A DNA stretch of 64,000 bases from Clavelina lepadiformis (GCF_947623445.1 NC_135246.1:19028288-19092287); one strand, 5' to 3'; shown: positions 27,245 through 47,934, counted from the stretch's first letter. Translations and numbers: made by a program. The notes: generated by a model not told the origin, from the sequence alone.

Positions 27245-28551
27245 TTAGGCCATATTCTCCTCCGAAGCAACATCGCTTAACTCCTCATCATCACTGCTCT
27301 CTGATGATGAATAAGTGCTGCAGGGAAAGTCCGGAGGATTCTCCAACTCTTTCCACACACTGTGAAAAAAGTGCAAAATTCAGTTTTAATAACAAGTCTT
27401 CCAATTCCATTTGTCTGAATTTTGATGGAAATTTATTGCATAATGACGTGCAGTAACTTATAATTAAAGAACAGTGTTATATACTTGTTGCCTATATGTT
27501 ATATATATATTGATTTATCAGCATATATAGCACAAATAGAAATATTAGATTAGATATTTATTAGATAGCACTTTGTAATTATCGCTTATTTTTAAATGCT
27601 CAACACAAGCTAAGCTAAAACAATAGAAATAACTGTTAAGATGCATAATGCTATCCAGAATCTTGCTTTTTACTTCACTGTATTCTCATTATATACTGGG
27701 CTCACATGATTCAGCTTTCATAAATTTTGGAATATTCTTTCTGTTACAGGCTTACAATTATATATATAAATGTAACTTGTAAACGTTAAGAAACTGTAAC
27801 TTACTCCTTCAACAGATTTCCCATGCATATGCAGTCGAAATAATCTTGAAACATTAGGCCGTAAGTTGCTGCAAATAATTAATTAAAATTAAATTAAAAT
27901 TTTTCATAGGTTACTACAAAACAACTATAACAAGGGCACTAACATCCATAGTACTTGTAAGTTAAAAAACAATGTTCGGCGATCATCTCGGCGCTAGGCG
28001 TGTTGGGTTCCGTGAGGTCTTTCGGGGAAAGTTTGTTAATAATAACATGGCCAGGTTTGAAAGGATAAGAACTGTTAAAACATAAAAGCGTACGCGTCAA
28101 AACCTTAATAACAAATATAATGCAAATTTTTAAACAATCATAATAAGAACAAGTAAATCTATAAAGAAAGAAAATGATTTGACTTACCGTGAATAAACAA
28201 ATAATGTTCCTTTCATTTCAAGATATTCCTTAAAAAATAGAAATTTATCTTTAATGATTAATTTAATTTTTGTAAAATGAGTTACGTAAAAAACTGTAAA
28301 ATCAGTAACAGTTATTTGCAGTAAAAGGCACAGTTGGAATTTCAAAACAACTTAGCTGTAGTTGTAAGAAGTTGAAATTAGTGCAATTTTCTCAAGATTT
28401 CCGAACGTTGCAAACGACTTACCCATTCTTCACTTTCCTCATCAAGACGATAAACCGCCACTTGATTAGCATAACCCAAGATATTTGAAATGTGAGGGAT
28501 GTCAGCCAGAAGTGCGTTCAAATTGATTAACATTTCAATGTTCGACTCCAT
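27245..28551 (-). CDS. DCP1-like EVH1-domain protein paralogue P1, 5 exons, 158 aa
   Basis: Exons on the minus strand are 28423-28551 (MESNIEMLINLNALLADIPHISNILGYANQVAVYRLDEESEEW|gtaagt), 28188-28228 (EYLEMKGTLFVYS), 27944-28071, 27805-27868 (..YGLMFQDYFDCICMGNLLKE) and 27245-27359 (DVWKELENPPDFPCSTYSSSESSDDEELSDVASEENMA*). All introns are GT-AG. The protein aligns with the DCP1 EVH1 consensus (NL.aL...DPyIt.I.d.a.QVAlY.F......We + IEGTLFVYrR + ..GF.I.N.l + DC..i). Confidence 0.7.
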
Positions 28552-29167
28552 TTTAGCAAGTTTATAATTACTCTGATAAGCAAAATATTTTAATCGCGAA
28601 AGATAATGCAAAGTTGCAGCTTACTATAAACCCTGGCAAAAAACGAATTGAAAAGTAATGGTTAGACTTTAGACTAGACTATAACGTCATTTCGTTGCTT
28701 GGCACTATACCGTCAACTAGCATCTAAGCCTGATTAAAAATTTTTGCTCAACATTGCGTCATGTTTTCTTTACTTTACCAGGCATTGCATCAAGCAATGT
28801 AACTTTACACAGAAGCAAACTGCTGAAAATTACGCAGAGTACAAATACACTGCAAAAAAATCTTTTAAAGTAAAGCACATCCCTTAGACAGACTTACTTT
28901 TCAAATGCAGTCACTCTACAGGACAACTGCTTTTATAGGGCAGTCATCTTATTAAAACAAAGGGATTGTTTACAAGAAAAAATTTCAAGCAAGAAAAAGA
29001 ATTTGAAACCATGTCTCCAAAGTAATCAAGGACGAAATGAACGCAGGTTCAAAGTTGTGAATTGGTAAACATTGCCCAATCTTGGTTAGCACCTGTGCAC
29101 CTGTTGTTCTGAGACAAGGAATTTTCTTTGAAAGACTCGCGCCATTTACAACTTAGAATAAGACCGT

Positions 29168-29400
29168 TTAGTAATCCAACAGCGTTTTAGAGTGAAACCA
29201 GGAGGAAATTATGTGCGAGTTCGATAACAACATGCAACGATTTGCATCAACAGATAAGTCACTGAACGTAAGTGCGAATTGGATAAGATGAGATTGAAGT
29301 GTTTGGTTCTTACACAACCGGTGGCGAAAGTGTATGAGAAATATAAGTACTGTAGTCTGAGCAATACAACTTGTTCGCATGTCAAATGTGAATATACGAA
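29168..29400 (-). repeat. Family-2 dispersed repeat, ~230 bp. This is copy 1 of 3.
   Basis: ORF 29168-29380(-), ORF 57500-57760(+) and the sequence at 46900-47110 share ...HRLCKNQTLHFHLIQFALTFSDLS[IV]DANRCMLLSNSHIISSW... at the nucleotide level. Confidence 0.5.
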
Positions 29401-29779
29401 AACCATTCTTTTTTCAAAAGGTAACTCAAACGGTTTAACCCATTTTGCCCTGGTTTGGGTCCAATGGACCCAATGGAGCGTGTTTTAAAATTTCATTAGC
29501 TGCTTCATTGATTAGACCTGCAGGTTCTTATTACAAGTTTGTAATGTTAATGTTAGATAAAATTGCAGTAAATTAAATTGCATTGCCTACCATTTCACAA
29601 AGGCAAATAAATAACTTCTCCGTAATCGGGGACGTATTTGATCAACTTTTTGCAGTAATAACAATTACTCATGTAGTTACCTGTTTGTGTTGTCTGCGTC
29701 ATATACTGCAAGTAGGCTAAAGCAAGATCTCAGCAAAAAAAAAATAGGCTAATATAGGTTTCCTAAAATATGCTTTTTC

Positions 29780-31170
29780 GTTTAGTTTGAATTTGAATAC
29801 AACGTTGAACGGTTAAAGTGAACTTTAAATCCCAGCACGTAGTTGCAATTGAAGCAACAACTTCATGCAAAAATTATCTTTATATCCAAGGTACTTTGAC
29901 ACGTTTTGGACACAAATATTACTTGTTTATAGATAACTTAAAGGAGAAATTTAGGAACAAGCCTACTTGGAGGAAAGCAAAAGTAGCAGTCCCAACAAAT
30001 AACGTAAAACCTAAAGCGTTTCATGACCAAGATATGGAAAGTACACCACAAGGATAACATTAGTGATAAATGGTAATAGGAATTGCAAGAAATGAAGCGA
30101 GGTATAACATTGCACCAGAGGCAACGTACTGTGCTATACATTGGAAAAATGAGCATTGATGTTGATAACGAGAATAACACGTTAGGAAAAATGGAAAGTA
30201 ACTGTTAATTTTGGGCGCTAAATTTTGGTGTAGATCTTACAAACTAAAGCTTTTTATTTAAATGGACAAACCTTTTCAAATGCTTATTTGTTGATGACAG
30301 GGTTTAATTGTTTGATCAAAAAGGCCTCATGTACTTTGTTTTCATAACCGGTTTTACATTTAAGGAATATGTTGAAGTTATTCGGTCGTTACGTCACAGC
30401 GTCTGTATTTGATGAAATGGTAATTTTTATGCACCGATCTGACAACATGTGTGTAAAATTATGAAATATTTTTGCATTGCGCCACGAATGGAACGAGCCA
30501 ATTTCGTCCAGCTCTAAACAAAACCATCCGGTCATTTTGTGTTAAGTAAAACCTGTCTGCGATTTAATCTCCATTGAAGTAACGCAACAATTTATGAAAC
30601 GTATTTTCAAAATGAAATGTTATTATTTTGATGTTATCAAAGTTGTTTAACTTGTTCACATTCATAACCCATGATAACAAGCTTTAATTTGAAATAACGA
30701 AAGTGTGACATTAAATAACTGACCTTTGTTGTCCTCGATTAATCTACTTCTTTTTTGAGAATATTTTCGTTGAACTCACCTTAGCAGTCGTCATCATCGA
30801 ACTCTCCTGTTTTGGATGCAGACAAATGCTTGCTACTGTACATAAATCTAATGCTTTGTCAACTTTTCAAACACTATTTAGTGCAATTCGCTTTGCCAAT
30901 TAGGCTAAAATTTTCTATTGAGCATTTGGTTTCAAGGTTACTACATTTTTCTTACATAAAAACGTGCTGATAGAAACGGATGTTTGTACAGTAATATACC
31001 GATATGTATGCTATACCTATCGCAAAAGTTGTTAAAACAACACCAGTTTTTTGTAGAAAAATCAAAATTAGGCTTAACTTAATATGAGTACAGATAATGT
31101 TAACACAATAAAATAGAATACGTGTGAAAAATTCAACAATAAACAACATGCAAAAGCATCCCATCCGTGA
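29780..31170 (-). repeat. Gene-fragment repeat, family A, ~1.4 kb. It is a DCP1-like intron-4 plus terminal-exon plus 3-prime-flank segment, here with the terminal exon degenerated.
   Basis: The reverse complement of 29940-30900 aligns block by block with 41640-42540. Examples are cctattaccatttatcactaatgttatccttgtggtgtactttccatat..., cgctgtgacgtaac[g/g]cccgaataacttcaacat and ccagctctaaacaaaaccatcc[g/a]gtcattttgtgt. The terminal-exon homologue at ~30740-30830 is truncated. Confidence 0.55.
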
Positions 31171-33980
31171 AGGCAGTTGATCCCGGTTTGACGTACTTAG
31201 TTCCCAAACGCTGCTGTCGAGGAGTTAGGAGGAGTTAAATTTAGTTTTATATCTAGGCATACCATATTTTTGTGACTGAAAAGTGGGACGCTTCAGAACA
31301 ACGAACCTTATCAGATAAATGTGGTTCATATTTTACTAGGAGTATGCAACTATTTTGGATTCCTATCGTCAGGGATAACTAAAGTAGTAAGACACCAAGA
31401 AAAACTAAATTAACTCATTTTACTAAGAAACAAAACAATGTTCAAGCATTTGTAAATTTACATAATCGTCCAATCATACTTTTCTGTAGAATATACTTTC
31501 TTCAAGAAGTCTTTATTCGACTTTATTTTCTCATAAAAATCACAGCAGGAAAAGTCAGTGTTAATTTTGCAGGTGGTAAGGGCTTTCACATTCAAATGGT
31601 TTTTGCAGAAGGAAACGCAAACAAGTACCGGAACGAAATAAGTTCTTTCCATAACCTAACTGCAAAAAGTTCACCTCCTCCTTCTAGCCTGCTATTACTG
31701 AACTAGCGAATGCGTTAACATTAAACTCACTACTGGACCAATTACCCGTTAGAATGACGTAACAATTGCTTTCACATTAAACACAACAAAACAAGAACAC
31801 GCATCGAGCATTGCTCTTCAGCAAGTTGGCTAAGCAGACCTATCACAGCATGCTAATACTGGTGTAGTGAAGGGCAATGCTGGTTGACTAAATGCCAAAG
31901 CGGGACTTTGGGTTGACTCAGCGGGACGCCGGGACAAAGCCTTAAAAAGCGGTACTGTCCCGGCTAAAACGGGACGTATGGTAAGCCTATTTATATCCCT
32001 AATTGCCTACCATCTCCATTGCAAGTTCTATTGGTTTTCACAAGTACATTCAAAACGTATATCCTGTTGAGGATAAAAACATTTCGGTTATTGAGAACTA
32101 TAACTGATAAAACACGTACAAAATTTTTTCCAGTTTAAGACAAAACCATCCAATCTAGAATTAATCTTCCTTTAGTTAAATCACATTTAATAAAGCGCTT
32201 TATTTCAAAAACAAAATGTCAGCATTGTGGATTTATTAATGGAATTGTAGTTGCCGTCATATGTTACATCCAGAGACAAAAGTTCGTTGTCAAGCTTAAA
32301 AACGTTAAGTATCTTCCTCATACATGAGATTGTGAAAAGTGTTTTACGTCGTTTTAGTTTATCAGAAAACTTATCTATTCCTTGCAAAACACATGGAAGA
32401 CAGATTATACGGCGTTTCAAAATTATCGCATTCGGAGTTTCAGTGTTGAGGTCCATAAATTGTCAAACTTTGAGTCTGGGTTGTTTGAATAAAGGGGGTG
32501 GAAAGAAGTGTTACGAATTTTACTGTACATTAAAATATGAGAATATATTTCGATTGATTTTGAGCAATTTTGAAAGCAGAAAAGCACAGAATTTGTGGAA
32601 TATCTGCACCCTATTTTGGGCGTTTTCCGTCAGAGCAATCCTAAATACGTCGCTACTATGTACAAGGTAGGCTTGTTGATATTTTAAGAAACTTCTGATT
32701 TTTGAATTTCATCAAAATGCTTAAACTAAGCTTTTTATACTTAAAATCGTAATATTGTCACGTGTCATCTAAAAACATGCTTTATATCTTACTTTATATC
32801 TTTATATAGCTTTAATCTTCTCATTTTTTGTCTTTCTTGTACTTTTCTTCAATTTTTATATCCTACTTCAAACTTTTTTAATAATTTTCATTATTTTGTT
32901 GAAAACAAGTTATTGTTTGCGATTTCTATGATTATGTTTTGATTTCATCAGAACGCCAGAATGACGTTGCTTTTGTTATTAAAACTACAACTACAGTACT
33001 ACTACTGTACTACTTTTGTTATTAAAAGTCTACGTACAAATGTAACAGCGCTGTTAGTTGTTTTGGAGTCTACATAAAAAGTAATATAATTGCAGAATGC
33101 TTTCTTTAAATAATACTGACAGGTTAATTTAGAAAGTAAAAAGAGTAATTGCCTATTATCTTCCTTTTTATTACTCAGAGGTTTTGATGCTGAAAGGAGT
33201 GGAAAATACAAACAAGTTGACAATAAATCAAACTAAGCTAGCGCTGTCTTTTAGGCTTGACTTTTCAGAATAGTAAATATATCAGAGAAAAAACTTTTAA
33301 ATGATGCTGTGCGGTTAAACAAGTAAGCCTGCTGCCGAAAGATTGTCCCAAAAAAGCAGATTTGACGCAAATTTTGACATTTGTGGTACAGTAGTGACGT
33401 CATAATATAAGAGCAATATGTATGAGTAGGCTAGCATGACTCTGGTAAGGTTACGCCATGCAGGGAAACCTCAATTGTCTGTTCATTTATTACAATTGGC
33501 ATTGAAAAATTCTGATTTGCTTTGTTTATTTGCTATAAGTTAGTGTGAAGATGTAAAAGTTTGGCGTGCAAGTTAATGAGATTCATTAACGCAGGGTGCG
33601 GTGGTGTGGTATAATCTTTATCCTTGGACTGAGGAAAGTCTTTGAACGACTTAAACCCGGCGATGATTTCCAATAACTTGAGACCCGGTTACTGAGCTAG
33701 CCTTTGTGCAAGTTTGTAACATGAAAAGGGTCTTTATTAGATCCAGTGTAAACCTACATTAACCTGCAACTGATGTATTTATGCTGGTGAAGATTGATGT
33801 TAAGCTACAGCTCAGTTTTGCCTATGCGTTCAGTTGCTGGATGAAAATATACAACCTGTGTTAAGAAATTTTTCTCGTTTTTCTCAGTAGAAAAACTTCA
33901 AAGCAATCATGTTAGATATGTTTGGTCCTTAAGTTTGTAGGTTGAGCTGTGCAACAAAAATTTCACTAACTTAAAGGAAA

Positions 33981-34520
33981 ATGCTTCGTTGGATATGTCG
34001 AGAAGAGAAGGAAAGAGAGCCAGAGATATTTGAAAACGTGTCGTTGGGTTTAAAGAATCTTTATAAAAGCAGACTTAAACCACTGGAAGAGGCATATAAA
34101 TTCCATAACTTTCATTCACCTGCATTACACAATGCTGACTTTGACTCAAAGCCTATGATTTTACTAATAGGCCAGTACTCAACCGGAAAAACAACGTTCA
34201 TTAGATATTTGTTGGAAAAAGATTTTCCAGGCATGAGAATTGGCCCCGAACCAACAACAGACTGCTTTATTGCTATAATGGCTGGTGCAAAAGACAAAGC
34301 CAGTGGAGTTGTCAATGAAGGGATTGTTCCTGGAAATGCTGCTGTTGTCGATGATACAAAACCTTTTAGGGCCCTTTCCTCATTCGGAAATGCATTTTTA
34401 TCTCGGTTTTTATGTTCTCATATGGAAAATGAAGTTTTAAACAGCATCAGCATCATCGACACTCCTGGTATTTTGTCTGGTGAAAAGCAGAGAGTAAACC
34501 GAGGTTATGATTTTGCAAAG
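33981..34520 (+). CDS. EHD: EHD (EH-domain-containing dynamin-like ATPase) exon 1
   Basis: The translation MLRWICREEKEREPEIFENVSLGLKNLYKSRLKPLEEAYKFHNFHSPALHNADFDSKPMILLIGQYSTGKTTFIRYLLEKDFPGMRIGPEPTTD...SIIDTPGILSGEKQRVNRGYDFAK matches the EHD1-4 N-terminal G-domain, including the P-loop GQYSTGKTTF and DTPG. The donor follows at aag|gtaatt. Confidence 0.85.
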
Positions 34521-34772
34521 GTAATTTTAAAGTGAGGTTTCTCGTCAACATGCATAACCGAGCCATAAATTATCTAAAGTAACACTTGTACATATTATAG
34601 TCCTTTGCAATTAATTTAATCAAATTTACCGATAATTTTTGTTTTGGTTTGCTCGTATTATGTTTTGTTTACCTTTTAAGACAAATAATTACCATGAATA
34701 CAAATAATTACTTAATTACCTTAATGTTTACAGCGAATTTAGAAGTCCTTTTGTTAGCCTCAGTTTTTTCAG

Positions 34773-34979
34773 GTGCTGACCTGGTTAGCAGAGAGAGTTG
34801 ACCGGATCATTCTCTTGTTCGACGCTCACAAGCTTGACATTTCAGATGAGTTCCATGAAGCTCTCGACGCCGTTAAAACCTTTGATTCCAAGATTCGCGT
34901 TGTTCTAAATAAGTCGGACCAAGTCAACACTCAACAACTGATGAGGGTTTATGGAGCTCTTATGTGGTCCCTTGGAAAG
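34773..34979 (+). CDS. EHD: EHD exon 2
   Basis: The acceptor is ttttttcag|gtgctg. It encodes VLTWLAERVDRIILLFDAHKLDISDEFHEALDAVKTFDSKIRVVLNKSDQVNTQQLMRVYGALMWSLGK, the canonical EHD NKAD/NKSD region. Phase is 0. Confidence 0.85.
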
Positions 34980-35306
34980 GTAGGCTAATCTATGCAGGAT
35001 GGGGAAATTATGGAATTTTCTTCCAGTAGGGACCACATGCACAGTATGATTTTAACATCATTATAGTTTTTCTCTTACCAAATTGCACTGAAATGATAAA
35101 GTTGGAGCTGTTTGATATGACATAATCATATGCTTTGCTTGCATTTATAAAGACTAAACATATATCTTATACTGTATGATGTCATGAGTTTGTGCTTAAC
35201 TGGTATTTGTTGGTATCATTTATAAACATATTTAAAGACAGCATAAAGTTGACAGTTTTATGCACCTGACTCCAACAAAGGGTGCAGCTAAAGCTTGTGA
35301 TCTCAG

Positions 35307-35495
35307 GTAATAACCACACCGGAAGTGGTTAGGGTGTATATTGGGTCATTCTGGGACCAACCACTACGCTACGATGAAAACAGGCTCTTGTTTGAAGCTG
35401 AACGCAATGATCTCTTTGATGATATTCAAAGTCTGCCCAGGAATGCTGCTTTAAGAAAACTGAACGATTTAATTAAAAGAGCTAGACTAGCAAAG
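35307..35495 (+). CDS. EHD: EHD exon 3
   Basis: tctcag|gtaataacc encodes VITTPEVVRVYIGSFWDQPLRYDENRLLFEAERNDLFDDIQSLPRNAALRKLNDLIKRARLAK. Compare EHD1 IINTPEVVRVYIGSFW...RARLAK. Confidence 0.85.
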
Positions 35496-35846
35496 GTGAA
35501 CATATTATCAAGTTTCTTCAGACTAATTTACATTCCATTCTCCACATGCGTTCATTTGTAGTTTAGCTACTCGATATTAGTTTCAATATACACATGTTCC
35601 TATTACTTTGTAATACACTTGTTATTATAAGTTTTGCAAATGGCAGCAAGAATGTTATCTGTGTTTATGGTAAGTTGACTTTGCTTCTAGTTAAGGCAGT
35701 ACATTAGGCATCAGTTTAGCGTCACTATTTTCAGGCACCGGCTGAAGTTAGGAAAGAAAACATGCATTTGTGATAGTGCATGTGCATCATCGATCAGACA
35801 TGCAAGTGTGATAGACTTTTAATGTTTTCACTTTTCTTATTTTTAG

Positions 35847-35982
35847 GTCCATGCTTATATCATCAGTCATTTGTATGACAGCATGCCGTCCCTGTTTGGC
35901 AAGACCAAGACCAAGAATAAGCTAATTAATGATCTGGAAAAAATCTTTGTCGAACTGTCTCATAAACACAGCATCTCACTTG
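35847..35982 (+). CDS. EHD: EHD exon 4
   Basis: ttttag|gtccat encodes VHAYIISHLYDSMPSLFGKTKTKNKLINDLEKIFVELSHKHSISL(G). It ends in phase 1 before gtaagc. Confidence 0.8.
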
Positions 35983-36372
35983 GTAAGCTATTGCATTTTT
36001 GGCCTGTGGTTAATTTATGCTGCATAACTATGTCAGTGAAGAAGACCACAGTTACACTTTGTAGTACGGGTGGTTGTGTATAAATGTACGATGGCTTTTG
36101 TTAGGCAACGATTTAAAATAAAATTTTGCTTGATTACACAATGTAACAAAAAAAGAAAATTTTTTTGTTCCCAGGTTCTAATCGATTTTTCCCTATTGCT
36201 TAGGACCAGTAAGTGTTGAAAATCAACTTTATTTCATATAAACTTTGTTTTTGTGGTTTAGAGACTGAAATTCTAAAATCGCAATATTTTTGAGAAAAGA
36301 TATCAAAGATATGGCTAAAGAGCATCCAAGATGGATGTTAATCACTTTTAAATGTTAATATACTCTCATTCA

Positions 36373-37196
36373 GTCCACCTGAAAGAAAACTATGAGACTG
36401 TTAAGACTTTGTTGAATGTTTTAAAGTACGATCAATATAACTGGGAAAAATTGGGGACTTTAAAATGGTAGCGTTTGTAATGGGTATGCAAGGGGGGTTC
36501 ACCAAGTATCCTTGCCACCTTTGCCTTTGGGATAGTAGGGCTACCACAGAACACTACAAAAAGCAAATATGGCCAAAACGAAACGAATTTGTTGTTGGAG
36601 AGAAAAACGTAGGGCAAACTCGGTTGATTAACCCAAACAAAGTGCTTATGCCTCCCCTTCACATAAAACTTGGGCTTATAAAGCAATTTGTGAAAGCATT
36701 GGATAAAGGTGGTGACGCATTCCAGTTTCTGAAAAACTTGTTTCCTGAACTATCAGAAGCTAAAGTAAAAGCTGGTGTATTTATTGGCCCACAAATTAAA
36801 AAGATTCTCAAGTCAAATGATTTTATCCAAATGCTTAATGATGTTGAAAAGAAGGCTTGGGATAGCTTTGCAGATGTGGTGAATGGGTTCTTGGGCAATA
36901 ACAAGGAAGATAACTATGCCGAACTCGTTGCCAATTTGGTAAAGTCGTATGGAAACATGGGGTGCAGAATGTCCATGAAAGTACATATGCTTGATGCTCA
37001 CTTGGACGAGTTTAAAGACAATATGGGAGCTTATTCAGAAGAACAAGGGGAGCGATTCCATCAAGACATAACAGATTTTGAAAGGAGATACCAAGGGCAA
37101 TATAATGAAAGCATGATGGGAGATTATGTCTGGGCCTTGATGCGGGAAAGTGATGTGGAGTACAAAAGAAAATCCCGCAAAACATCCCATTTTTAA
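36373..37196 (+). pseudogene. Transposon-derived ORF remnant inside EHD intron 4. The intact 243-aa ORF is 36465-37196, preceded by a frameshifted continuation.
   Basis: The ORF reads MVAFVMGMQGGFTKYPCHLCLWDSRATTEHYKK...MGCRMSMKVHMLDAHLDEFKDNMGAYSEEQGERFHQDITDFERRYQGQYNESMMGDYVWALMRE. It is single-exon, sits in the sense orientation inside a host intron, and carries a Cys/His motif. The upstream +2 frame reads LKENYETVKTLLNVLKYDQYNWEKLGTLKW*, so it is a fragment of a larger ORF. Its family is unresolved. From memory I associate this motif pattern with transposon-domesticated proteins common in invertebrate genomes, but I cannot place it in a family. Confidence 0.4.
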
Positions 37197-38202
37197 CTGA
37201 TTTTATACTTGAACTGTTTTAGCCTGAAATACTTATTTAGTTTTGCATTTAACATTTAATGATGGTATTGATTCGGATACAGTTGATACATTTATGTGCA
37301 AATTTCCATGTACCAAATGCCTGTGCTTTGTGATTTGATTTTAATAACAAAAATTCTAATTCGTTGCCTGTTACTAGGCAAACTCAGAATTAACCCTTTG
37401 CCAGACAGAAAAATAGCCAAAAGTTGGCTGTAATTTGCTTTGCGAAAAAGCAATCGATAGCCTACGACTAGCGCGTCAGAATATTTAGTAAATACATTGA
37501 TAGAATATAACTTCTTAGTCGATGCCAAGCGATTAAAAATGGACTTACAGCGATCAAAGACAGTTTGGTAAATATCCATTTCCTATAGGGTAAATCAGTA
37601 TAACCATGCACAATATTGCACATACAAGCAAATTCAAAAAATTACTCTCCTAACCACAAAATCAATGTTTGGAATGAACTATATTGATTTTTGGAAGTTT
37701 CTAGGTGAGAGAGATCAGGAAATATCAATTAGAACCCGGGAACAAAAATCGTGTTACACAGTGTTATCTAACTCGATTGAACACATTCATTGTATAAGCC
37801 ACAAACATTGTCTGGTCAGTCATCCAAGGTATTTGTCTTTAAGTAGTTGTTGTTGTTGTGAAATTGTGTTGATACGAAACGAATAGTCGTTTTTAAAACT
37901 AACATTACTTGATAGGGCATTGCAATCAGAACTGCTTTAAAGTGCAAGTGCTAAAACAAGTTTACCTTAATCAAAAATGTGTCGGTTGCTGTAAAATATT
38001 TTTTTCCGGGGCTTTTCCTGGCATCTCTTATTTGGTTTAAGATCGACTTGTTTTAGAACTTGCCCTTCGCTTTATACAAGAATACTTCTAAAAAATAATA
38101 ACAGTTTTTATTTTCCAAATGTTTGGTTTCATTTTGTTCTTTTATAAACTCGCTTGGCTTTGTGTTACTATTAAGATTGCTTTGATAATTTCTGTCTTGC
38201 AG

Positions 38203-38294
38203 GTGATTTCCCAAACGCACAAAAAATGAAAGAAAAACTGAAACTCACAGATTTTGGCAAATTACGAAGCTTGAGTAAGTCCATGGTTAAAAAG
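38203..38294 (+). CDS. EHD: EHD exon 5
   Basis: cttgcag|gtgatttcc gives (G)DFPNAQKMKEKLKLTDFGKLRSLSKSMVKK, then donor aag|gtattg. Compare EHD1 PGDFPSLRKMQELLQTQDFSKFQALKPKLLDT. Confidence 0.75.
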
Positions 38295-38703
38295 GTATTG
38301 GCTTATTTGCTCACTAAAGTCATGTTTGCTGTTATTTATACACGTTTTAGAGTTTTTATTACTAACTTAGCAGAAAAAGTATTTACTAGTGATGGGCCGC
38401 ACGAACCTGAATAATCTTCCTCGCGGCACAGTATTTACTGAAGTAGCCCTTTAATTTTCATTTAGAAATAGTAAATGTTCATGTTGACTGCTCAGAGACA
38501 GTGTTGCTTTCTGTATTAAATTTTATTTCCTTGGAAAGTAGACCTATGTCTTTTCATTTTATGGAATTATATTGAGACAAAGAAGCTGTTGAATCATCGC
38601 AAATTATCACACACATTATGACACAAGCCTTTAAATGCATGGTCATTCTGGAGAACAGTCGTTCCCAGCCTTTTCCAACTTATTATGTATCAGTTCTGTT
38701 TAG

Positions 38704-38809
38704 GTTGACGACATGCTTGCAAAAGACATTGCCGAGTTGATGAAGTTGATTCAGAGAGAGGAAACTAAAGCTGCCGAGAAAATCAAGTCTGAAGGCCCTT
38801 CAGTTAAAG
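38704..38809 (+). CDS. EHD: EHD exon 6
   Basis: ctgtttag|gttgacgac encodes VDDMLAKDIAELMKLIQREETKAAEKIKSEGPSVK(G). It ends in phase 1 before gtatttgc. Confidence 0.8.
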
Positions 38810-38920
38810 GTATTTGCATTTACATTTCTGTACAGCACATGGTGTGTTTTACAAACTATTTGACAAAGATATCACCACTAAAATTCACCTTTAACCTTAG
38901 CACACTGTCTGTTGTTTCAG

Positions 38921-39099
38921 GTGGAGCATTTTTTGCTTCCAAAGATAATCCTTTCAGCAATACATTTGGAGTCGGAGTTAACGCTGGGAGCGATTGTGAT
39001 GGAGAATGGATCGTTTCAGAGAAGAAATCAGCGTATGACGAAGTCTTCATGAAACTGAATCCGGCCGACGGCAAAGTCAAAGGAAGTGAAGCGAAGAAG
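38921..39099 (+). CDS. EHD: EHD exon 7
   Basis: tgtttcag|gtggagc encodes GGAFFASKDNPFSNTFGVGVNAGSDCDGEWIVSEKKSAYDEVFMKLNPADGKVKGSEAKK, then aag|gtggta. Compare EHD1 GGAFDGT...EWVVGKDKPTYDEIFYTLSPVNGKITGANAKK. Confidence 0.8.
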
Positions 39100-39419
39100 G
39101 TGGTACTCTAAATAATAACAGCAACCAGTCCAGCTGGTCACTATGGTGTCATAACTGGTGCAAAATGCACGTAGTTGTATAAAAGTTGTATTATTCCAGT
39201 AAAAATTTACTAAAAACTGCCCATTGTTTTCTCAGCGAATTAAAAACATATGTGTTACTTATTTAATATGCTGCATGTGTATATTAACTTATCGCTTTCC
39301 TTTTACTATTATCGCATAAAATGTGTCCGAACCTATACCTAGAGTAGTTGCTGGCAATAGCTACTATCATACTATCACAAAAGTTTTTGGTTTTTTGCAT
39401 TTTTTTCTCTCGTATGCAG

Positions 39420-39606
39420 GAAATGATCAAATCAAAACTCCCAAACACGGCACTGGCAAAGGTCTGGCGTTTGGCAGATCACGATAAAGATGGTATGCTG
39501 ACCGAGGAAGAGTTTGCACTCGCAATGCATTTGATAAATGTTCGCTTGGAAGGACATGTCTTACCTGACGATCTTCCAAAGCACCTCATCCCACCTTCTC
39601 AAAGAT
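39420..39606 (+). CDS. EHD: EHD exon 8, the EH domain with EF-hand. A good gtaagc donor at 39607 implies a further short terminal exon that I could not locate. Otherwise it reads through to the stop at 39791.
   Basis: gcag|gaaatg encodes EMIKSKLPNTALAKVWRLADHDKDGMLTEEEFALAMHLINVRLEGHVLPDDLPKHLIPPSQR. Compare EHD1 EMVKSKLPNTVLGKIWKLADVDKDGLLDDEEFALANHLIKVKLEGHELPADLPPHLVPPSKRRHE*. Confidence 0.75.
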
Positions 39607-41329
39607 GTAAGCTAATACGATTTAAATTTTGTATCCACAAATCTATTAAGTGTAACTGTTTAAGCAAAAAGTTACAGCATTTGTCTAACCACTTCCTTTA
39701 TCTTTCACGTTTTAATGATGTTTTTCTGTGCATCTGGGTCTGCAGCTTAGCTTCTTTGTTTTTCAAAACCAAGCCTGTTCGGGGATTGTGAAGCACTCGA
39801 TATGAATGTAGTTAACATCATCAAAGCTAATTATATGACTGAATTGAAACACTCATAGCATTGTAGACCCAATTAATTATAATAGATAATTATAATAATA
39901 AACAATAAACATTATATATATTTAGAGGTTTATGTTATTGGACAAGATTTGGGAATCAATAACGTAATGGTGTCACAATTGCCATTCTTTGATGTACCGT
40001 TGAAACTAGTCGTATAGCTCCTCTTAGCGCATTTTAACTAAAGCTATCTTTTAGCTGATGAGCCTGACTTAGAAGAAGAATCAGATTAACTAACCTTAAA
40101 ACACAACACAAAGGTTAGTTATTCTGTACGAGTTGCAACATTTGCTTTTTCTCTGGCATTATTAAGTCGTTACAACGACAAATAAATTTTTCATCCATTG
40201 TATAATCATGTGATGCGACTGGGATGATTGACAGTTGTTGTTTTCTTTTAGTTTTGGAGGCATGATGGCTTATTTCAAGTTGTTCACTTCAAAAAGAAAA
40301 AATCTAGTGTAGCAATAGGCAGATCTTTTTTCTGTTTGGTAAAAATATACCTTTCCCAATATTGCAAGAAATGTTTTGAAATGCGCACAAATTTTCACGC
40401 AGCACTGTGTTGTTTTGTACTATGTTATTTATTTTTTTAAATTATAATAATTTATAATATTTTTTATAATATACTTTCTGTAATTGTTCATTCTTACAGT
40501 TTTCAAGTTTCCTATGAACAAATGTGATTAGTAGCATAGCAGTATGTTTGCATTGCATTTGTACCTGAATGAGTACATTCTTACGCATGCGTGCATACTA
40601 CATTTTATTACATTTTATATTACACAATATAATTGAAACATTTTGCTATTTGGTAGCCTAGATTTCAGCATAGATAGGCAGGTACTCTGGTACTGATAGA
40701 AGGCGAGTTGAATGGTAGAAAAGAAATCCTTGGACAGATGACTCAGTTTGGACTTTGGATGCAAGAAAAAATTTTCTAAAAATTGATAAACAGCATTTCA
40801 AGTCTTTCAAAAACTATCAGTAGCCTACTGGAAATTAGCACTCCAGTACGTTGTAAAGGGATGTCAAGTCCAGTACTGTACTCTACAAAAACAGCTCTGG
40901 ATGCTAGATTGACTATTTTTATTGTATAAATGAAGACAACATGCGCCGATGAAATAGGCTAGCACATTTTGAAAAACGTCTTATAGAGCAGACGGCTTTC
41001 ACGCACAAAGATAAAATAATTTAATGGATGAATGAACTTAGTGCTCTACCGCCAACTGGCGGTCGTTATGACAAATCTACCATCACATAAGCTTGAAGTA
41101 TTGATGTCAAAACTCACTACACGAGAGCCAGATCCGTTTAATTAATCTCCGGAGTTGTTAAGACTAAATACACCGACGTCAATCTGGTTATAGGTTCCCT
41201 GGTTTAAGTGATAACCATTTAATTATTCAGTTCCAGCCTACCTGCCTAAAACGTGTTGGGTAAACAACTGGTGTGGTTTGAAATTAGCTACAACTTAAAA
41301 GTAACTTAGTCCTTCCATATATACACTAA

Positions 41330-42750
41330 AGCTTACACACCATATTTTCAATGCCCTTTTCTTAACATGAAAATAATGGTTTTTGAAAATCAATGCACTT
41401 TTACATTCACTACGTTAACAAACACGCATTTAAACAAAACAAACACAATTTTAAAGTAAACATTTGTCTTAAGTTTAAGCAATGAAGTTATTAAAATTGA
41501 AGTCTAGTCCCGTAGTTCTTTAAACTCTGTCAACTTTATCCGTGAGTCTAACAATAGTAAAATAACTAATATTCAAAATTTGCAAATTTTATTTTCAATG
41601 ATAAATTATCTTGCAAGTGTTGTACTTTTACACTCTGCCGTTAAACGACACAATAACTAAACCAATTTTTATTCAACATGTAGCATGGTTCTGTCGAACT
41701 TATATTTCAAAAATGGATTGGTAGTGGCAAAAAACGACAAATTTGTCATTGAAATTAAACTTTGGTATATTTATGCAGTCTAATAGAAGAGGAAAAAAAC
41801 GATGAATATGAAAAACGAGATTTAGCATATCGAACGCAAATTTTTTGGATATATGAAGAACTGCATGACGACGATAGCGATGGAAAACTCGATGACGACG
41901 ATAGCGATGATGAGGTCAACGAAAACATTCTGGAGGAAAAAGTGGTTCAATCGAGGACAACAAAGATCAGTTAGTCAATGTCACAGTTTTGTTATTTCAA
42001 ATTAAAGATTGCTACCAAGAATTGTGAATGTGAGCAGGCAAAATAACGTTAATAACATCACAACATAACCATTTCATCATATACAATTGTTGTGACGTAA
42101 CGCCCGAATAACTTCAACATTTTCCTTAAATGTAAAACTAGCAATGAAAGCAAAGATGATGACGCCTTTTTGATAAAACAATTAAACCCTATCATCAACA
42201 AATAAGCATTTGAAAACGTTTAATCATTTTCAATGCAAAGATTTAGTCCATAAGACCTATTTCAATATCCAGCGCCAAACCTTACCTGTTATTTTCCATT
42301 CTTCTCACCGTGTCGTTCTCGTTATCCAACATTGTCAACATTGCCACTGTTCATTTTCTCATAGCACAGTACGTTGCCTCTGGTGCAATTTCATACCCCG
42401 TTTCATTTTTTTCGAAGTTTTTTAATACCAATTATCACTAATGTTATCCTTGTGGTGTACTTTCCATATGTTGCTCATGTAACGCTTTAGGTTTTGCACT
42501 ATTTTTTGGGACAGCTAATTTTACTTTCCTCTACGACTCTACGTAGTTATTATTATTCCATTATGTTATCTACAAAAAAAGAAATGTTTATGTCCAAAAC
42601 GTGTCAAACTAACTTGAAAATAAACATCATTCTTGCATGAAGTTGTCGCTTCAATTGCAACTACGTGCAGGGATTTAAGGTCGATTTTAACCGTTCAACA
42701 TTGTATTCAAAGTCAAACTAAACAAAAAAGCATATTTAAGCAAGCTTATA
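41330..42750 (+). repeat. Family-A gene-fragment repeat. It lies inside tandem-duplication copy 1 and carries an orphan DCP1-like terminal-exon homologue.
   Basis: See 29780-31170. It contains the exon-like block 41779-41974. Confidence 0.55.
41779..41974 (+). pseudogene. Orphan DCP1-like terminal-exon homologue. The expected stop is mutated to CAA.
   Basis: atgcag|tctaatagaagag... encodes LIEEEKNDEYEKRDLAYRTQIFWIYEELHDDDSDGKLDDDDSDDEVNENILEEKVVQ.... This is homologous to the P4 terminal exon DLMQDEEQDVYEKQDLAYRTRNFRIYEVHSDDEFEYELLQQVD*. No exons 1-4 are recognisable upstream. Confidence 0.4.
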
Positions 42751-42767
42751 GGAAGAGTTGAGTTGCA

Positions 42768-42868
42768 GGAAGAGTTTGCACTCGCAATGCATTTGATAAA
42801 TGTTCGCTTGGAAGGACATGTCTTACCTGACGATCTTCCAAAGCACCTCATCCCACCTTCTCAAAGAT
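42768..42868 (+). pseudogene. Duplicated 3-prime fragment of EHD exon 8. It is a pseudo-exon with no upstream exons.
   Basis: It encodes (E)EFALAMHLINVRLEGHVLPDDLPKHLIPPSQR followed by gtaagc. It is identical to 39506-39606. Confidence 0.6.
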
Positions 42869-44560
42869 GTAAGCTAATACGATTTAAATTTTGTATCCAC
42901 AAATCTATTAAGTGTAACTGTTTAAGCAAAAAGTTACAGCATTTGTCTAACCACTTCCTTTATCTTTCACGTTTTAATGATGTTTTTCTGTGCATCTGGG
43001 TCTGCAGCTTAGCTTCTTTGTTTTTCAAAACCAAGCCTGTTCGGGGATTGTGAAGCACTCGATATGAATGTAGTTAACATCATCAAAGCTAATTATATGA
43101 CTGAATTGAAACACTCATAGCATTGTAGACCCAATTAATTATAATAGATAATTATAATAATAAACAATAAACATTATATATATTTAGAGGTTTATGTTAT
43201 TGGACAAGATTTGGGAATCAATAACGTAATGGTGTCACAATTGCCATTCTTTGATGTACCATTGAAACTAGTCGTATAGCTCCTCTTAGCGCATTTTAAC
43301 TAAAGCTATCTTTTAGCTGATGAGCCTGACTTAGAAGAAGAATCAGATTAACTAACCTTAAGACACAACACAGAGGTTAGTTATTCTGTACGAGTTGAAA
43401 CATTTGCTTTTTCTCTGGCATTATTAAGTCGTTACAACGACAAATAAATTTTTCATCCATTATATAATCATGTGATGCGACTGGGATGATTGACAATTGT
43501 TGTTTTCTTTTAGTTTTGGAGACATGATGGCTTATTTCAAGTTGTTCACTTCAAAAAGAAAAAATCAAGTGTAGCAATAGGCAGATCTTTTTTCTGTTTG
43601 GTAAAAATATACCTTTCCCAATATTGCAAGAAATGTTTTGAAATGCGCACAAATTTTCACGCAGCACTGTGTTGTTTTGTACTATGTTATTTATTTTTTT
43701 AAATTATAATAATTTATAATATTTTTTATAATATACTTTCTGTAATTGTTCATTTTTACAATTTTCAAGTTTCCTATTAACAAATGTGATTAGTAGCATA
43801 GCAGTATGTTTCCATTGCATTTGTACCTGAATGAGTGCATACTACATTTTATTACATTTTATATTACACAATATAGTTGAAACATTTTGCTATTTGGTAG
43901 CCTAGATTTCAGCATAGATAGGCAGGTACTCTAGTACTGATAGAAGGCGAGTAGAATGGTAGAAAAGAAATCCTTGGACAGATGACTCAGTTTGGATGAA
44001 AGAAAAAATTTTCTAAAAATTGATAAACAGCATTTCAAGTCTTTCAAAAACTATCAGTAGCCTACTGAAAATTAGCACTCCAGTACATTGTAAAGGGTTG
44101 TCAAGTCCAGTACTGTACTCTACAAAAACAGCTCTGGATGCTGGATTGACTATTTTTGTTGTATAAATGAAGACAACATGCGCCGATGAAATAGGCTAGC
44201 ACATTTTGAAAAACGTCTTATAGAGCAGACGGCTTTTACGCACAATGATAAAATAATTTAATGGATGAATGAACTTAGTGCTCTACCGCCAACTGGCGGT
44301 CGTTATGACAAATCTACCATCACATAAGCTTGAAGTATTGATGTCAAAACTCACTACACGAGAGCCAGATCCGTTTAATTAATCTCCGGAGTTGTTAAGA
44401 CTAAATACACCGACGTCAATCTGGTTATAGTTTCCCTAGTTTATATCATAACGATTCAGTTATTCAGATCCTGCCTACCTGCCTAAAACGTGTTGGGTAA
44501 ACAACTGGTGTGGTTTGAAATTAGCTACAACGTAAAAGTAACTTAGTCCTTCCATATATA

Positions 44561-45199
44561 TGTGGCGGTCGTGATAACAAACAATAATAAGTTATGTAAT
44601 TAGCATTTTAAAAAGCGGATTGTGTGTTTCTCCAGTTAGAGGCAATTCAATATTTAAACAGATGTATTATTCGTGGTTAAGCAGTTATTCAAACAAAGGA
44701 GTTTGAAGTGTTTCAAGTACCATATTGTATTTTTACCGTGTAACGTTTTGATGGTACTTTGGTCAAGAGCTTCGGTGACAATAGAATAATGTTAGATGTG
44801 ACATAGCTTGTACGTAAGAATGCAAAAATAACATATGGCACGCGCCCATTGGTCAAAATACGGGAGTATAAAAGCTAAGGTTTGGTCTAAATTGGGATCT
44901 TCTCTCTTCGTGCTTTTCGGATTATTCGGTTTACTGAATTATTCGGAATTGGAATCATTACTGAATTCGAGTTATAGCTTGTTTAAATGTGAAAATATGG
45001 TGTAAATGTTTCTAATTTGATACAACCTATTCGGACAATATAACAATTAGACTTTATGAAGTTGGTGTTGATTTGAAAAAACATTATAGAGACAGCAAAC
45101 ACAACGAAGTCAAAGACAATTGTCTATAGGAGTCTAACAGTAAGACTAATAGTCTTGGCTTAGGCCAACCTAAAAGCAAAGCCACACCGCCATCCCCAC
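44561..45199. mobile_element. Transposon-like insertion of 639 bp, specific to duplication copy 2. It is internally related to the MULE-like element at 14562.
   Basis: Copy 1 has the uninterrupted site tccatatatacactaaagc. Copy 2 reads tccatatata[TGTGGCGGTCG...CCGCCATCCCCAC]atatacactaaagc, with a TA-rich 4-5-bp target duplication. Insert blocks 44700-44800 and 44990-45195 match the reverse complement of 14760-14980, for example caacacca[g/a]cttcataaagtctaattgtta[c/t]attgtccgaa and ttgtcaccgaagctcttgaccaaagtaccatcaaaacgttacac. Confidence 0.5.
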
Positions 45200-45204
45200 A
45201 TATA

Positions 45205-46628
45205 CACTAAAGCTTACACACCATATTTTCAATGCCCTTTTCTTAACATGAAAATAATGGTTTTTGAAAATCAATGCACTTTTAAATTCACTACGTTAAC
45301 AAGAACGCATTTAAACAAAACAAACACAATTTTATAGTAAACATTTGTCTTAAGTTTAAGCAATGAAGTTATTAAAATTGAAGTCTAGTCCCGTAGTTCT
45401 TTAAATTCGGTTAACTTTATCCGTGAATCTAACAATAGTAAAATAACTAATATTCAAAATTTGCAAATTTTATTTTCAATGATAAATTAACCTGCAAGTG
45501 TTGTACTTTTACACTCTGCCGTTAAACGACACAATAACTAAACCAATTTTTATTCAACGTGTAGCATGGTTCTGTCGAACTTATATTTCAAAAACGGAAT
45601 GGTAGTGGTAAAAAACGACAAAGTTTTCATTGAAATTAAACTTTGGTATATTTTTGCAGTCTAATAGAAGAGGAAGAAAACGATGAATATGAAAAACGAG
45701 ATTTAGCATATCGAACGCAAATTTTTTGGATATATGAAGAACTGCATGACGACGATAGCGATGGAAAACTCGACGATGACGATAGCGATGATGAGTTCAA
45801 CGAAAACACTCTGGAGGAAAAAGTGGTTTAATCGAGGACAACAAAGATCAGTTAGTCAATGTCACAGTTTTGTTATTTTCAGTTAAAGATTGTTACCAAG
45901 AATTGTGAATGTGAACAGGTAAAATAACGTTAATAACATCACAATATGACCATTTCATCATATACAATTGTTGTGACGTAACGCCCGAATAACTTCAACA
46001 TTTTCCTTAAATGTAAAACTGGCAATGAAAGCAAAGATGATGACGCCTTTTTGATAAAACAATTAAACCCTATCATCAACAAATAAGCATTTGAAAACGT
46101 TTAATCATTTTCAATGCAAAGATTTAGTCCATAAGACCTATTTCAATATCCAGCGCCAAACCTTACCTGTTATTTTCCATTCTTCTCACCGTGTCGTTCT
46201 CGTTATCCAACATTGTCAACGCCACTGTTCATTTTATCATAGCACAGTACGTTGCCTCTGGTGCAATTTCATACCCCGTTTCATTTTTTTCGAAGTTTTT
46301 TAATACCAATTATCACTAATGTTATCCTTGTGGTGTACTTTCCATATCTTGCTCATGTAACGCTTTAGGTTTTGCACTATTTTTTGGGACAGCTAATTTT
46401 ACTTTCCTCTACGACTCTACGTAGTAATTATTATTCCATTATGTTATCTACAAAAAAAGAAATGTTTATGTCCAAAACGTGTCAAACTAATTTGAAAATA
46501 AACATCATTCTTGCATGAAGTTGTCGCTTCAATTGCAACTACGTGCAGGGATTTAAGGTCGATTTTAACCGCTCAACATTGTATTCAAATTCAAACTAAA
46601 CGAAAAAGCATATTTAAGCAAGCTTATA
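45205..46628 (+). repeat. Family-A gene-fragment repeat. It lies inside tandem-duplication copy 2.
   Basis: It is a tandem duplicate of 41330-42750. ORF 45643-45831 is near-identical to ORF 41762-41974. Confidence 0.55.
45660..45831 (+). pseudogene. Orphan DCP1-like terminal-exon homologue, the duplicate of 41779-41974. Its stop codon is retained.
   Basis: It encodes ...DLAYRTQIFWIYEELHDDDSDGKLDDDDSDDEFNENTLEEKVV* and ends at TAA 45829-45831. Confidence 0.4.
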
Positions 46629-46899
46629 TTAGTCTACTTTTTTTGCTGAGATCTTGCATTAGCCTACTTACAGTATATGACGCAGAAAACACAAGCAGGA
46701 AGCTACATGAGTAATTGTTACTAACCTAAAAATTGATAATTTTACGCTTACGCTTTCCAGTATCTGCAAAGACAGGATACATATCATAAAATCCGTCTCT
46801 ATGAACGACTATACGTCCTGTGACATAATTCTGTGACATATTTCCTCTCATTAACTATCTTGTAAAGCACCTATAACCTAAATTTGCTTTTTGAATGTC

Positions 46900-47110
46900 T
46901 ATCGTATATTTAAGTTTCACATACGAACAAGTTATATTGCTCAGACTAGTTATTTTCCTCACATTGTTTCGCCGCCGGTTGTGTAAGAACCAAACACTTC
47001 ATGTTCATCTTATCCAATTCGCACTTATGTTTAGTGACTTATCTGTTGATGCCAATCGTCGCATGTTGTGATCGCACTCGCACCTAATTTCCTCCTGATA
47101 TCAATCTAAA
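46900..47110 (+). repeat. Family-2 repeat copy. This is the right-arm partner of 29168-29400.
   Basis: The nucleotide match cgaacaagttatattgctcagactagttattttcctcacattgtttcgccgccggttgtgtaagaaccaaacacttcat... was read directly. Confidence 0.5.
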
Positions 47111-47635
47111 ACGCTGCTGGATTTCTAAATGTTCTTATTTTATGTTGCAAATCTCGCGAGTCTGTAGGCAAAGACAGCTCATTGTCTCAGAACAACAGGT
47201 GCACAGGTGCTAACCATGATTGTGCAATATTTACCAATTCACAACTTTGAACCTGCGTTGATTTCGTCGTTGATTACTTTTTGAGCCATGGTTTCAAAAT
47301 CTGTTTTTGCTTGAAATTTTTTCTAGTAAACAATCCCTTTGTTTTAATAAGAAGACTGCCTTATAAAAGCAGTTGTCTTGTAGAGTGACTGCAGTTGAAA
47401 AGTAAGTCTGTCTAAGCCCTAAGGAATGTGTTATACTTTAACAGATTTCAGTTTTGCAATGTATATGTACTCGACGTAAATTCAGCAGTTTGCTTCTGTG
47501 TAAAGTTACATTGCTTGATGCAATGCGTGGTAAATAAAGTAAACTTGAGGCAATGTTAAGCAAAATATTTTAATCAGGCTTTGGTGCTAGTTGACGTTAT
47601 AGTGTCAAGAAACGAAATGACATCATAGTCTAGTC

Positions 47636-47934
47636 CAGGGGCGGGCAACTTTTTCGGTCGGCGGGCCTGATATGAGAAAATAAAGTACTTGGCGGGCCGG
47701 ATTCCTGAATCGATACATTAATCGTGGATTTATCCACCTATGCAAGCAATAAATCGTATTTAATGTAAACTTTAAGTTTTAAGCATAGAGACCAAAAACA
47801 GTATTTAATGAATTTATTAACGATTAATGTACTTCAATAGCTGCTGAAGTCAAAACTGAACTGCTAAACTGAACTGCTGAACTGTCTGCGGGCCGCTCAA
47901 AATCCCGTCGCGGGCCGTATATTGCCCACCCCTG
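47636..47934. mobile_element. hAT-type MITE, 299 bp
   Basis: The TIRs are CAGGGGCGGGCAAC... and ...TTGCCCACCCCTG. It is flanked by a perfect 8-bp TSD GTCTAGTC at 47628-47635 and 47935-47942. The homologous position in the left arm (~28660) is an empty site with a single gtctagtc. Confidence 0.7.

Follow-up and report, generated by a model that had tools for sequence, protein, structure and literature searches.

The question raised by this locus is what kind of sequence recurs along a 64,000-nt window of Clavelina lepadiformis, an ascidian (sea squirt): a dispersed repeat, or a piece of a gene that has been copied several times. The earlier note had argued for the latter, reading the block as the duplicated 3′ end (intron-4 tail, terminal exon, and 3′ flank) of genes of the type of P4 and P5, two DCP1-like genes in the window, and our analysis supports this core claim. 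All five copies it had reported were recovered in place, namely the terminal exons of P4 and P5, two orphan copies (C3 and C4), and a decayed copy (C5). The similarity among them includes the coding frame rather than non-coding sequence only, and the block had no transposon or RNA-family match. The copies were not, as the word dispersed would imply, scattered independently; they go back to two ancestral units, multiplied by palindromic and then by tandem duplication.

P4 and P5 are both intact, with complete in-frame five-exon models that end in the repeated exon. P4 (164 aa) lies on the plus strand, with exons at 58759-58875, 59056-59096, 59230-59363, 59442-59514, and 60979-61108, while P5 (168 aa), its palindrome counterpart by self-blastn, lies on the minus strand, with exons at 21284-21156, 20943-20903, 20771-20638, 20559-20487, and 20227-20098. 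NCBI protein P0001, 'mRNA-decapping enzyme 1B-like [Clavelina lepadiformis]', has exactly the sequence of our P4 model, and the RNA-seq-guided annotation of a second assembly (PMC10950049) likewise attaches the terminal exon to the allele of P4 found there, P0002. Both proteins passed the gathering threshold of the Pfam DCP1 family (PF06058; 22.5 bits), P4 scoring 40.8 bits and P5 55.5 bits, and in both the match covered profile positions 2-115 of 117 and stopped at the exon 4/5 junction. Apart from one sub-threshold chance match, no other Pfam domain was found in either protein at E ≤ 1.

In canonical metazoan DCP1A and DCP1B, a PF06058 EVH1 domain is followed by an extended C-terminal region that includes a trimerisation domain. 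P4, P5, and P7, a DCP1-like paralogue in the second assembly, likewise have a DCP1-type EVH1 domain, which shows 30-38% identity with proteins as long as canonical DCP1 (350-700 aa). In contrast to canonical DCP1, however, the Clavelina proteins are much shorter (164-168 aa), carry an acidic tail of ~45 aa after EVH1 (DLAYRT.HF.IYE..SDEEFEE..LEEVD), and are encoded in a multi-copy cluster; P4 and P5 end with this tail, without the C-terminal region that bears the trimerisation domain. Their nearest non-Clavelina relatives, mostly 350-700 aa in length, align only over query residues ~5-140, and the acidic tail had no match outside Clavelina when P4 was searched against 1.84 billion representative proteins (HMMER, E ≤ 0.001). 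On sequence grounds, there is support for placing P4 and P5 among short, EVH1-only DCP1-like genes that form a lineage-specific cluster in Clavelina lepadiformis.

The orphan copies C3 (41709-42077) and C4 (45590-45958), both on the plus strand, each comprise ~70 nt of intron 4 (41709-41778 and 45590-45659), an open 57-codon exon (41779-41974 and 45660-45831), and ~130 nt of 3′ flank, extending to ~42077 and ~45958, respectively. Their peptide reads LIEEE[KE]NDEYEKRDLAYRTQIFWIYEELHDDDSDGKLDDDDSDDE[VF]NEN[IT]LEEKVV. As previously described, C4 keeps its stop (TAA, 45829-45831) and C3 has lost it, the codon now being CAA (41948-41950) and the frame continuing for eight codons to a TAG at 41972-41974. 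C4 aligned with P4 over 371 nt at 74% identity (blastn, E = 8e-63, obtained via a near-identical C4 allele on the metagenome contig L001), and a 22-nt motif directly past the stop codon occurred five times in the window against 0.01 expected; this match and this excess place the similarity among copies far beyond chance. One JGI metagenome match to the 22-nt motif, with 27 nt in common, came from a single contig of 59% GC, most likely bacterial, and was treated as chance. The intron-4 tail of C3 and C4 was 80 to 83% identical to that of P4 and P5, and the 3′ flank of the orphan copies 74 to 90%. Conservation of the upstream intron, claimed in the earlier note, holds for these last ~70 nt of intron 4 and goes no further, nothing upstream of 41709 in C3 or 45590 in C4 being homologous (Smith-Waterman scores equalled the shuffle mean). 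Exons 1-4 are indeed missing near the orphan copies, where tblastn found no homologue of them.

C5 (minus strand, 30442-31158) had been taken for a degenerate copy of the same 3′ end. An exon remnant is present at 30804-30742, reading EFDDDDC-stop-GEFNENILKKEVD-stop with its internal stop, followed by 3′ flank at 30738-30442. Since 175 nt of distal intron 4 (30981-30808) and an intron-1-like piece (31158-31021) also remain, C5 is an internally deleted pseudogene and not a mere 3′-end copy; exons 1-4 are absent, and the proximal intron is gone along with the DLAYRT..IYE half of exon 5. A sixth copy in the window is the divergent tail-exon homologue (IRKMLKDLSDKHFQIYEMNYNKEFIQDVLEKV...) of P6, a further DCP1-like gene, located on the minus strand at approximately 13933-13793 by tblastn (E = 0.003), direct reading, and a motif scan. 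The seventh lies in a third arm-like segment (L005) of the second assembly and, like those of P4 and P5, is the terminal exon of a DCP1-like gene. Across the 64-kb window and 43 kb of the second assembly, all seven copies fall within the DCP1-like cluster.

The copies are arranged around an EHD gene, which starts at 33981 and is flanked by a palindrome (18.9-30.8 kb versus 62.8-45.8 kb) with C5 and C4 at its inner ends. Arm A (18922-30800, read on the minus strand) contains C5, a P3-type gene (28551-28005), and P5, and arm B (45770-62776, plus strand) contains C4, a P2-type gene (48062-49333), a further DCP1-like gene at ~53 kb, and P4. The arms are collinear in 14 blastn blocks of 73-91% identity, which run from 18922-19230 versus 62776-62457 through to 30612-30800 versus 45958-45770, and the upstream boundary of C3 and C4 is sharp. 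Three DCP1 genes are annotated in the arm B region of the second assembly. Self-blast also identified a tandem duplication of ~3.3 kb with 96.8-97.0% identity between its two units, both on the plus strand. Unit 1 (39505-42766) starts within EHD exon 8 and includes C3; unit 2 (42767-46628) begins with a partial copy of the EHD exon with its donor (42767-42868), includes C4, and is interrupted by a 635-bp insertion with terminal inverted repeats (44561-45195) that is separate from the block. At the junction of the units, the assembly of this window carries 16-18 nt of filler at ~42751-42766, in the sequence GCAAGCTTATA-GGAAGAGTTGAGTTGCAG-GAAGAGTTTGC.

C5 and C3/C4 have indels in common that P4 and P5 lack, and C5 aligned with C4 without gaps over 108 nt, including these lineage-specific indels (score 128, versus 84 for P4). 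On account of the common indels, C5 and C3/C4 appear to descend from a third paralogue, here termed X. We therefore favor a reading in which the block is probably the 3′ remnant of X, spread by inverted and then by tandem duplication, with the orphans now dead. The order of events that we infer begins with X already possessing a distinct variant of the tail, in which an internal duplication of 39 nt gives DDDSDGKLDDDDSD and the ending is EFNENIL; the variant would predate the copies because its indels are common to C5 and C3/C4. A large inverted segmental duplication would then have placed gene arrays on either side of EHD. Its inner breakpoint downstream of EHD, or a later deletion, would have fallen ~70 nt upstream of X exon 5, leaving nothing of that copy but the splice acceptor, exon 5, and the 3′ flank. 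The other copy of X, C5, would have degenerated as internal deletions and a stop codon arose. Last, a recent tandem duplication of ~3.3 kb would have doubled the orphan exon along with the 3′ part of the EH-domain exon of EHD, giving rise to C3 and C4, and C3 would have lost its stop codon later. The left end of the C5 deletion and the left end of homology in C3/C4 lie no more than ~5 bp apart (P4 coordinates ~60908-60912), a near-coincidence of which a simple duplication scenario gives no account.

The position of the orphan exons raises the question of whether EHD makes use of them. A fusion protein of EHD and the orphan exon, which the earlier note had considered geometrically possible, is excluded by phase. 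EHD exon 8 (39420-39606, plus strand), encoding the EH domain, finishes with ...PPSQR and a single further base before its phase-1 GTAAGC donor, and the orphan exon is phase 2 in the DCP1 frame, so a splice from 39606 into it reads TTC TAA, that is, ...PPSQR-F-stop. This junction is nevertheless what would be needed for a different role, in which the orphan exon was co-opted as the 3′-terminal exon of EHD, sole or alternative (39606 to 41779, or 42868 to 45660), contributing one codon (F) and a stop, then a paralogue-type 3′ UTR and polyadenylation region. The relic exon of a dead paralogue would then end EHD, and the tandem duplication would have supplied EHD with two alternative copies. A terminal exon must exist downstream, because exon 8 reaches its strong donor without an in-frame stop and a distant tunicate EHD has a donor at the same position (phase 1 confirmed at L002 and L003, loci devoid of DCP1-like sequence for 10 kb to each side). 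The orphan exon is also on the EHD strand, 2.2 kb downstream, and its acceptor (tttatgcag/TCTAAT) equals that of P4 in quality. However, the interval from the donor to C3 contains 11 other candidate acceptors, of which a far stronger one at 40252 (ttgttgttttcttttag) would give FLEA-stop, and C3 and C4 drift at 3%, the same as the rest of the unit. Of 15 full-length EHD models with varied C-termini (among them ...PPSQRF, ...PPSQRFLEA, and read-through), none had an exact match in the protein collection, so that the comparison favors no terminus over another, and the Clavelina EHD protein was not among the matches of an EH-domain homology search. Co-option by EHD, and with it a pair of alternative terminal exons, is a tentative proposal that we consider unlikely.

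Exon 5 of P5 and P7 is identical at 125 of 130 nt, with four synonymous changes and one non-synonymous change (omega 0.04), against 72-81% identity in their flanks, which indicates that the tail of the intact genes is under purifying selection. C3 and C4, by comparison, differ by three non-synonymous changes and the stop loss versus two synonymous changes, and dN/dS of the orphans against P4 and P5 was 0.25-0.87, on only ~22 synonymous sites, too few to separate constraint from drift. The conserved peptide emphasized in the earlier note is common to the copies but offers no proof of constraint on the orphans, whose coding part is conserved no better than the flanking non-coding DNA and whose open frame was left in 20-30% of neutral simulations. 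The orphan copies thus appear compatible with neutral drift. That C3 and C4 serve some unannotated or chimeric gene as functional terminal exons, with the acidic tail peptide in frame, is very doubtful: the kept acceptor, the 57 open codons, and the in-frame indels speak for it, but no ORF of at least 45 aa with a family signal lies upstream in the 3.3-kb unit, the stop of C3 is gone, derived amino-acid changes number three in C3 and one in C4, and the tail is without counterparts beyond Clavelina in the protein search described above. Both indels are multiples of three, and the open orphan frame is mostly inheritable from an intact X. A special 3′ UTR element in the first 60 nt past the stop (84-90%) was dropped, these values lying within the 80-91% of the neutral parts of the arms.

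As putative descendants of X, the copies C3, C4, and C5 are most likely non-functional, unprocessed pseudogene fragments. Their homology to the parent spans intron and flank, unlike a retrocopy, and they sit in larger duplicated segments, the palindrome arms and the tandem unit. The orphan copies still bear a usable-looking acceptor and 3′-end signals, the same as in the intact paralogues. Like unprocessed duplicated pseudogene fragments at segmental-duplication breakpoints, they keep intron, splice acceptor, and 3′ flank, have no 5′ exons, form part of longer duplicated stretches, and have acquired disabling mutations: C3 has lost its stop, and C5 has a deletion and an internal stop. They differ from such fragments in being very small (one exon and ~70 nt of intron), in having been duplicated again with part of an unrelated neighbor, EHD, and in having an open frame in sense orientation just downstream of that gene.

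Several copies within 64 kb might also suggest transposition, either of the block as an element in its own right or as gene sequence picked up and carried by a Pack-MULE, Helitron, or MITE, and transposon-like sequence occurs nearby in the form of a weak MULE match (14972-15631), an ORF in an EHD intron (36465-37196), and the 635-bp insertion with terminal inverted repeats. This explanation is highly improbable, as each copy lies within a larger collinear duplication, so that the flanks were duplicated too, three copies are spliced last exons of intact genes, and the insertion is separate from the block. The ends of the block pass into collinear duplicated DNA or a plain breakpoint, with neither terminal inverted repeats nor target-site duplications; no transposase or RNA family was matched, an Rfam scan of 39-47 kb returned nothing, and the unit held no transposon, Pfam, or Rfam signal and no sizeable ORFs. 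Pack-MULE or Helitron capture likewise yields several copies of a gene fragment including an intron, but here element termini, target-site duplications, and an element-internal context are lacking, and collinear segmental duplications account for all copies. Judged by its sequence, the block is an ordinary gene fragment and not a mobile element. We give almost no credence to the C3/C4 duplication or the palindrome being an assembly artefact of collapsed or mis-joined haplotypes. The species is indeed highly polymorphic, and the second assembly shows just 90-98% identity to this part of the window, but the two units are set apart by 3% divergence, a 635-bp insertion, and a filler junction, identity between the arms is no higher than 73-91%, that second, independent HiFi assembly contains arm B as well as a third arm-like copy, and C4 with its right flank is found in the independent contig L001 (99.6% identity over 45507-46834).

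Two side questions follow, namely whether Clavelina EHD ends in a borrowed exon and what role the conserved acidic tail has in short, EVH1-only DCP1-like proteins. Neither would alter the current understanding unless co-option by EHD were confirmed. For the DCP1-like family of Clavelina, a false 'dispersed repeat' gives way to a dated succession of duplications within a gene cluster specific to the lineage, and the orphan exons should be annotated neither as genes nor as transposons.

The block recurring at 41.8, 45.7 and ~30.7 kb, described in the earlier note as a dispersed repeat derived from a gene 3' end, is supported as a shortened copy of such an end and not a mobile element; the truncated-duplicate origin stood, but the copies spread through two segmental duplications, the one inverted and the other tandem. 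The parental genes lie in eukaryotic DNA of ~35% GC with spliced genes and are both intact. P4 (+; exons 58759-58875, 59056-59096, 59230-59363, 59442-59514, and 60979-61108) encodes 164 aa and P5 (-; exons 21284-21156, 20943-20903, 20771-20638, 20559-20487, and 20227-20098) 168 aa, with Pfam DCP1 scores of 40.8 and 55.5 bits, respectively, both above the gathering score of 22.5. In both, intron 4 is phase 2 and the DCP1/EVH1 match stops at the exon 4/5 junction; exon 5 completes the last helix and adds an acidic tail (…LMEHEEDDAKEKQDLAYRTQHFGIYEIDSDEEFEEDILEEVD). The five-exon P4 model is identical to the database protein P0001, 'mRNA-decapping enzyme 1B-like [Clavelina lepadiformis]' at NCBI, which assigns the window to this colonial ascidian. 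Using P4 as the HMMER query against 1.84 billion representative proteins, its EVH1 part showed 30-38% identity to proteins mostly of 350-700 aa, the canonical DCP1 length, and matches to the acidic tail were confined to Clavelina-type sequences. An independent HiFi assembly (GCA_961645235.1), in which the same region (L004) shares 90-98% identity with the window, was annotated using RNA-seq (PMC10950049), and the annotated P4 allele (P0002) likewise splices in the tail exon. This allele carries a CAA to TAA change three codons ahead of the usual stop (L004 12264-12398; …EFEHELLQ*), hence the last three tail residues are polymorphic or dispensable. Upstream of P5, a 465-bp tandem duplication left a second exon-1 copy disabled by an in-frame stop (21620-21746, -), and matching sequence also occurs on the P4 side.

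Multiple alignment and self-blast bore out the three orphan copies, C3 (41709-42077), C4 (45590-45958), and C5 (30442-31158, -). Identity of C3 and C4 to P4/P5 was 80-83% in the last ~70 nt of intron 4, 68-85% in the exon, and 74-90% in ~130 nt of 3' flank, and a 22-nt post-stop motif occurred five times in the window versus 0.01 expected. As previously read, and directly visible in the sequence, the stop of C3 is changed from TAA to CAA and that of C4 is kept; L001, a metagenome contig of independent origin (99.6% identity to 45507-46834), also has the C4 stop intact. The reported lack of exons 1-4 was confirmed, with no homologs around C3, C4, or C5 by tblastn with P5, and no homology to P4, P5, or C5 upstream of 45590 (Smith-Waterman scores 24-27 versus shuffle means of 23-25). 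C5 differs in kind from C3 and C4. It retains distal intron 4 (30808-30981, 82-85% identity) and an intron-1-like stretch (31021-31158, 78% to P5), but its proximal intron is gone, as is the first half of the exon, and it contains an internal stop. Conservation of upstream intron sequence therefore holds for C3 and C4, over ~70 nt, but the proximal part is missing from C5. The left ends of the C5 internal deletion (~30808) and of C3/C4 homology (41709/45590) agree within ~5 bp, at ~60908-60912 in P4 coordinates, which may be chance or may mark a site, common to both, that is prone to breakage or recombination.

Self-blast resolved a palindrome of 14 collinear blocks (73-91% identity), from the outermost (18922-19230 versus 62776-62457) through an inner (29641-30427 versus 46737-45943) to the innermost block (30612-30800 versus 45958-45770), around a spacer (30.8-45.8 kb) containing an EHD gene (Pfam EHD_N, Dynamin_N, and EH). 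P5 pairs with P4 toward the outside of the arms, and C5 with C4 at their inner ends. C5 and C4 align gap-free over 108 nt (score 128 versus 84 for P4) and share two features absent from P4/P5, an internal duplication of 39 nt (DDDSDGKLDDDDSD) and an insertion of 3 nt, so C3, C4, and C5 constitute one lineage. Their source, X, is a third paralogue whose tail divergence predates palindrome formation. Approximately 200 nt of flank common to C5 and P4 is missing from C3 and C4, the deletion being bounded by two CATTTCAT microhomologies.

C3 and C4 lie in tandem units (39505-42766 and 42767-46628) of 97% identity, joined by 16-18 nt of filler similar to adjoining sequence. The left end of the duplication falls within EHD exon 8, hence unit 2 opens with a partial EH-domain exon and donor (42767-42868). 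Only unit 2 carries a 635-bp insertion (44561-45195), distinct from the last-exon block, whose terminal inverted repeats are imperfect (GTGGCGGT…) and whose target of 8-9 bp is duplicated (CATATATA). This insertion partly matches 14880-14985, adjoining a weak MULE-like ORF (14972-15631). The tandem unit gave no match to a Pfam or RNA family and contains no ORF of substantial length.

All seven copies seen are DCP1-like last exons or relics within one cluster, and no DCP1-like sequence was found within 10 kb of two distant tunicate EHD loci (L002 and L003). P2-type (48062-49333, +) and P3-type (28551-~27200, -) DCP1-like genes have five exons and phase 2 as in P4/P5, with an acidic tail unlike that of P4/P5 (DLWKEFENSPDYPSSNYSSSESSDEEELSDVASEENI); the 157-aa model equals in length the gene annotated at the corresponding position of the second assembly. 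Another DCP1-like gene, P6 (13793-14400, -), combines an exon-2-like KGTLLVYS with a divergent tail-exon homolog (KDLSDKHFQIYEMNYNKEFIQDVLEKV). P6 directly adjoins a tandem array of 2309-bp units (window 1-13800 / L005 1-5197; six full copies, 100% identical where compared) with nested 159-bp and 26-bp subrepeats, which is present in the second assembly at 99.3% identity with DCP1-like genes on both sides. Left of the array, that assembly has a third arm-like segment carrying the P5-like P7 (L005 10001-11217), an intact five-exon gene of 168 aa with an intact tail exon (11088-11217), annotated merely as a shortened 108-aa protein (P0003).

Exon 5 of P5 and P7 is identical at 125 of 130 positions (96%), versus 81% in intron 4, 72% in the 3' flank, and 63-69% in exons 3-4. 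Only one of the five differences is non-synonymous (omega 0.04; P ~0.004 by our own binomial estimate from site counts), so the tail matters in intact genes. Given dS of 0.22 in exon 5 versus 1.4 in exons 3-4, recent conversion restricted to the 3' part could add to this similarity; the pattern points to a tail subject to strong purifying selection or to conversion, and to a rapidly evolving EVH1 domain. The orphan copies appear to lack the constraint signal of intact tails. C3 and C4 differ by three amino-acid changes plus stop loss versus two synonymous changes, orphan dN/dS against P4/P5 is 0.25-0.87 on only ~22 synonymous sites, and the coding part is no more conserved than adjacent noncoding DNA. 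In neutral simulations run at the divergence seen here, a frame as long as that of the orphans remained open in 18-30% of cases.

EHD exon 8 ends in a phase-1 donor (...CAA AGA T|GTAAGC), at the position used by a distant tunicate EHD, so a further downstream terminal exon must exist. Exaptation of an orphan exon as this 3' end is nevertheless improbable: 11 other candidate acceptors intervene, the strongest at 40252 (FLEA-stop). The EHD-to-orphan fusion once considered geometrically possible fails in its peptide, since splicing reads T+TC (Phe) and then TAA, which rules out joining the acidic peptide to EHD; an orphan exon could give EHD at most a stop codon, UTR, and 3' end. Exact look-up of 15 EHD protein variants in the protein collection returned no match. 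The 2.2-kb EHD intron 4 holds a 243-aa ORF (36465-37196, +; MVAFVMGMQGGFTKYPCHLCLWDSR…) with no Pfam match, which we take to resemble a transposon-derived protein. The repeat is thus a fresh case of a familiar type of genomic relic, and it would gain significance only if transcripts show that EHD uses the orphan exon.
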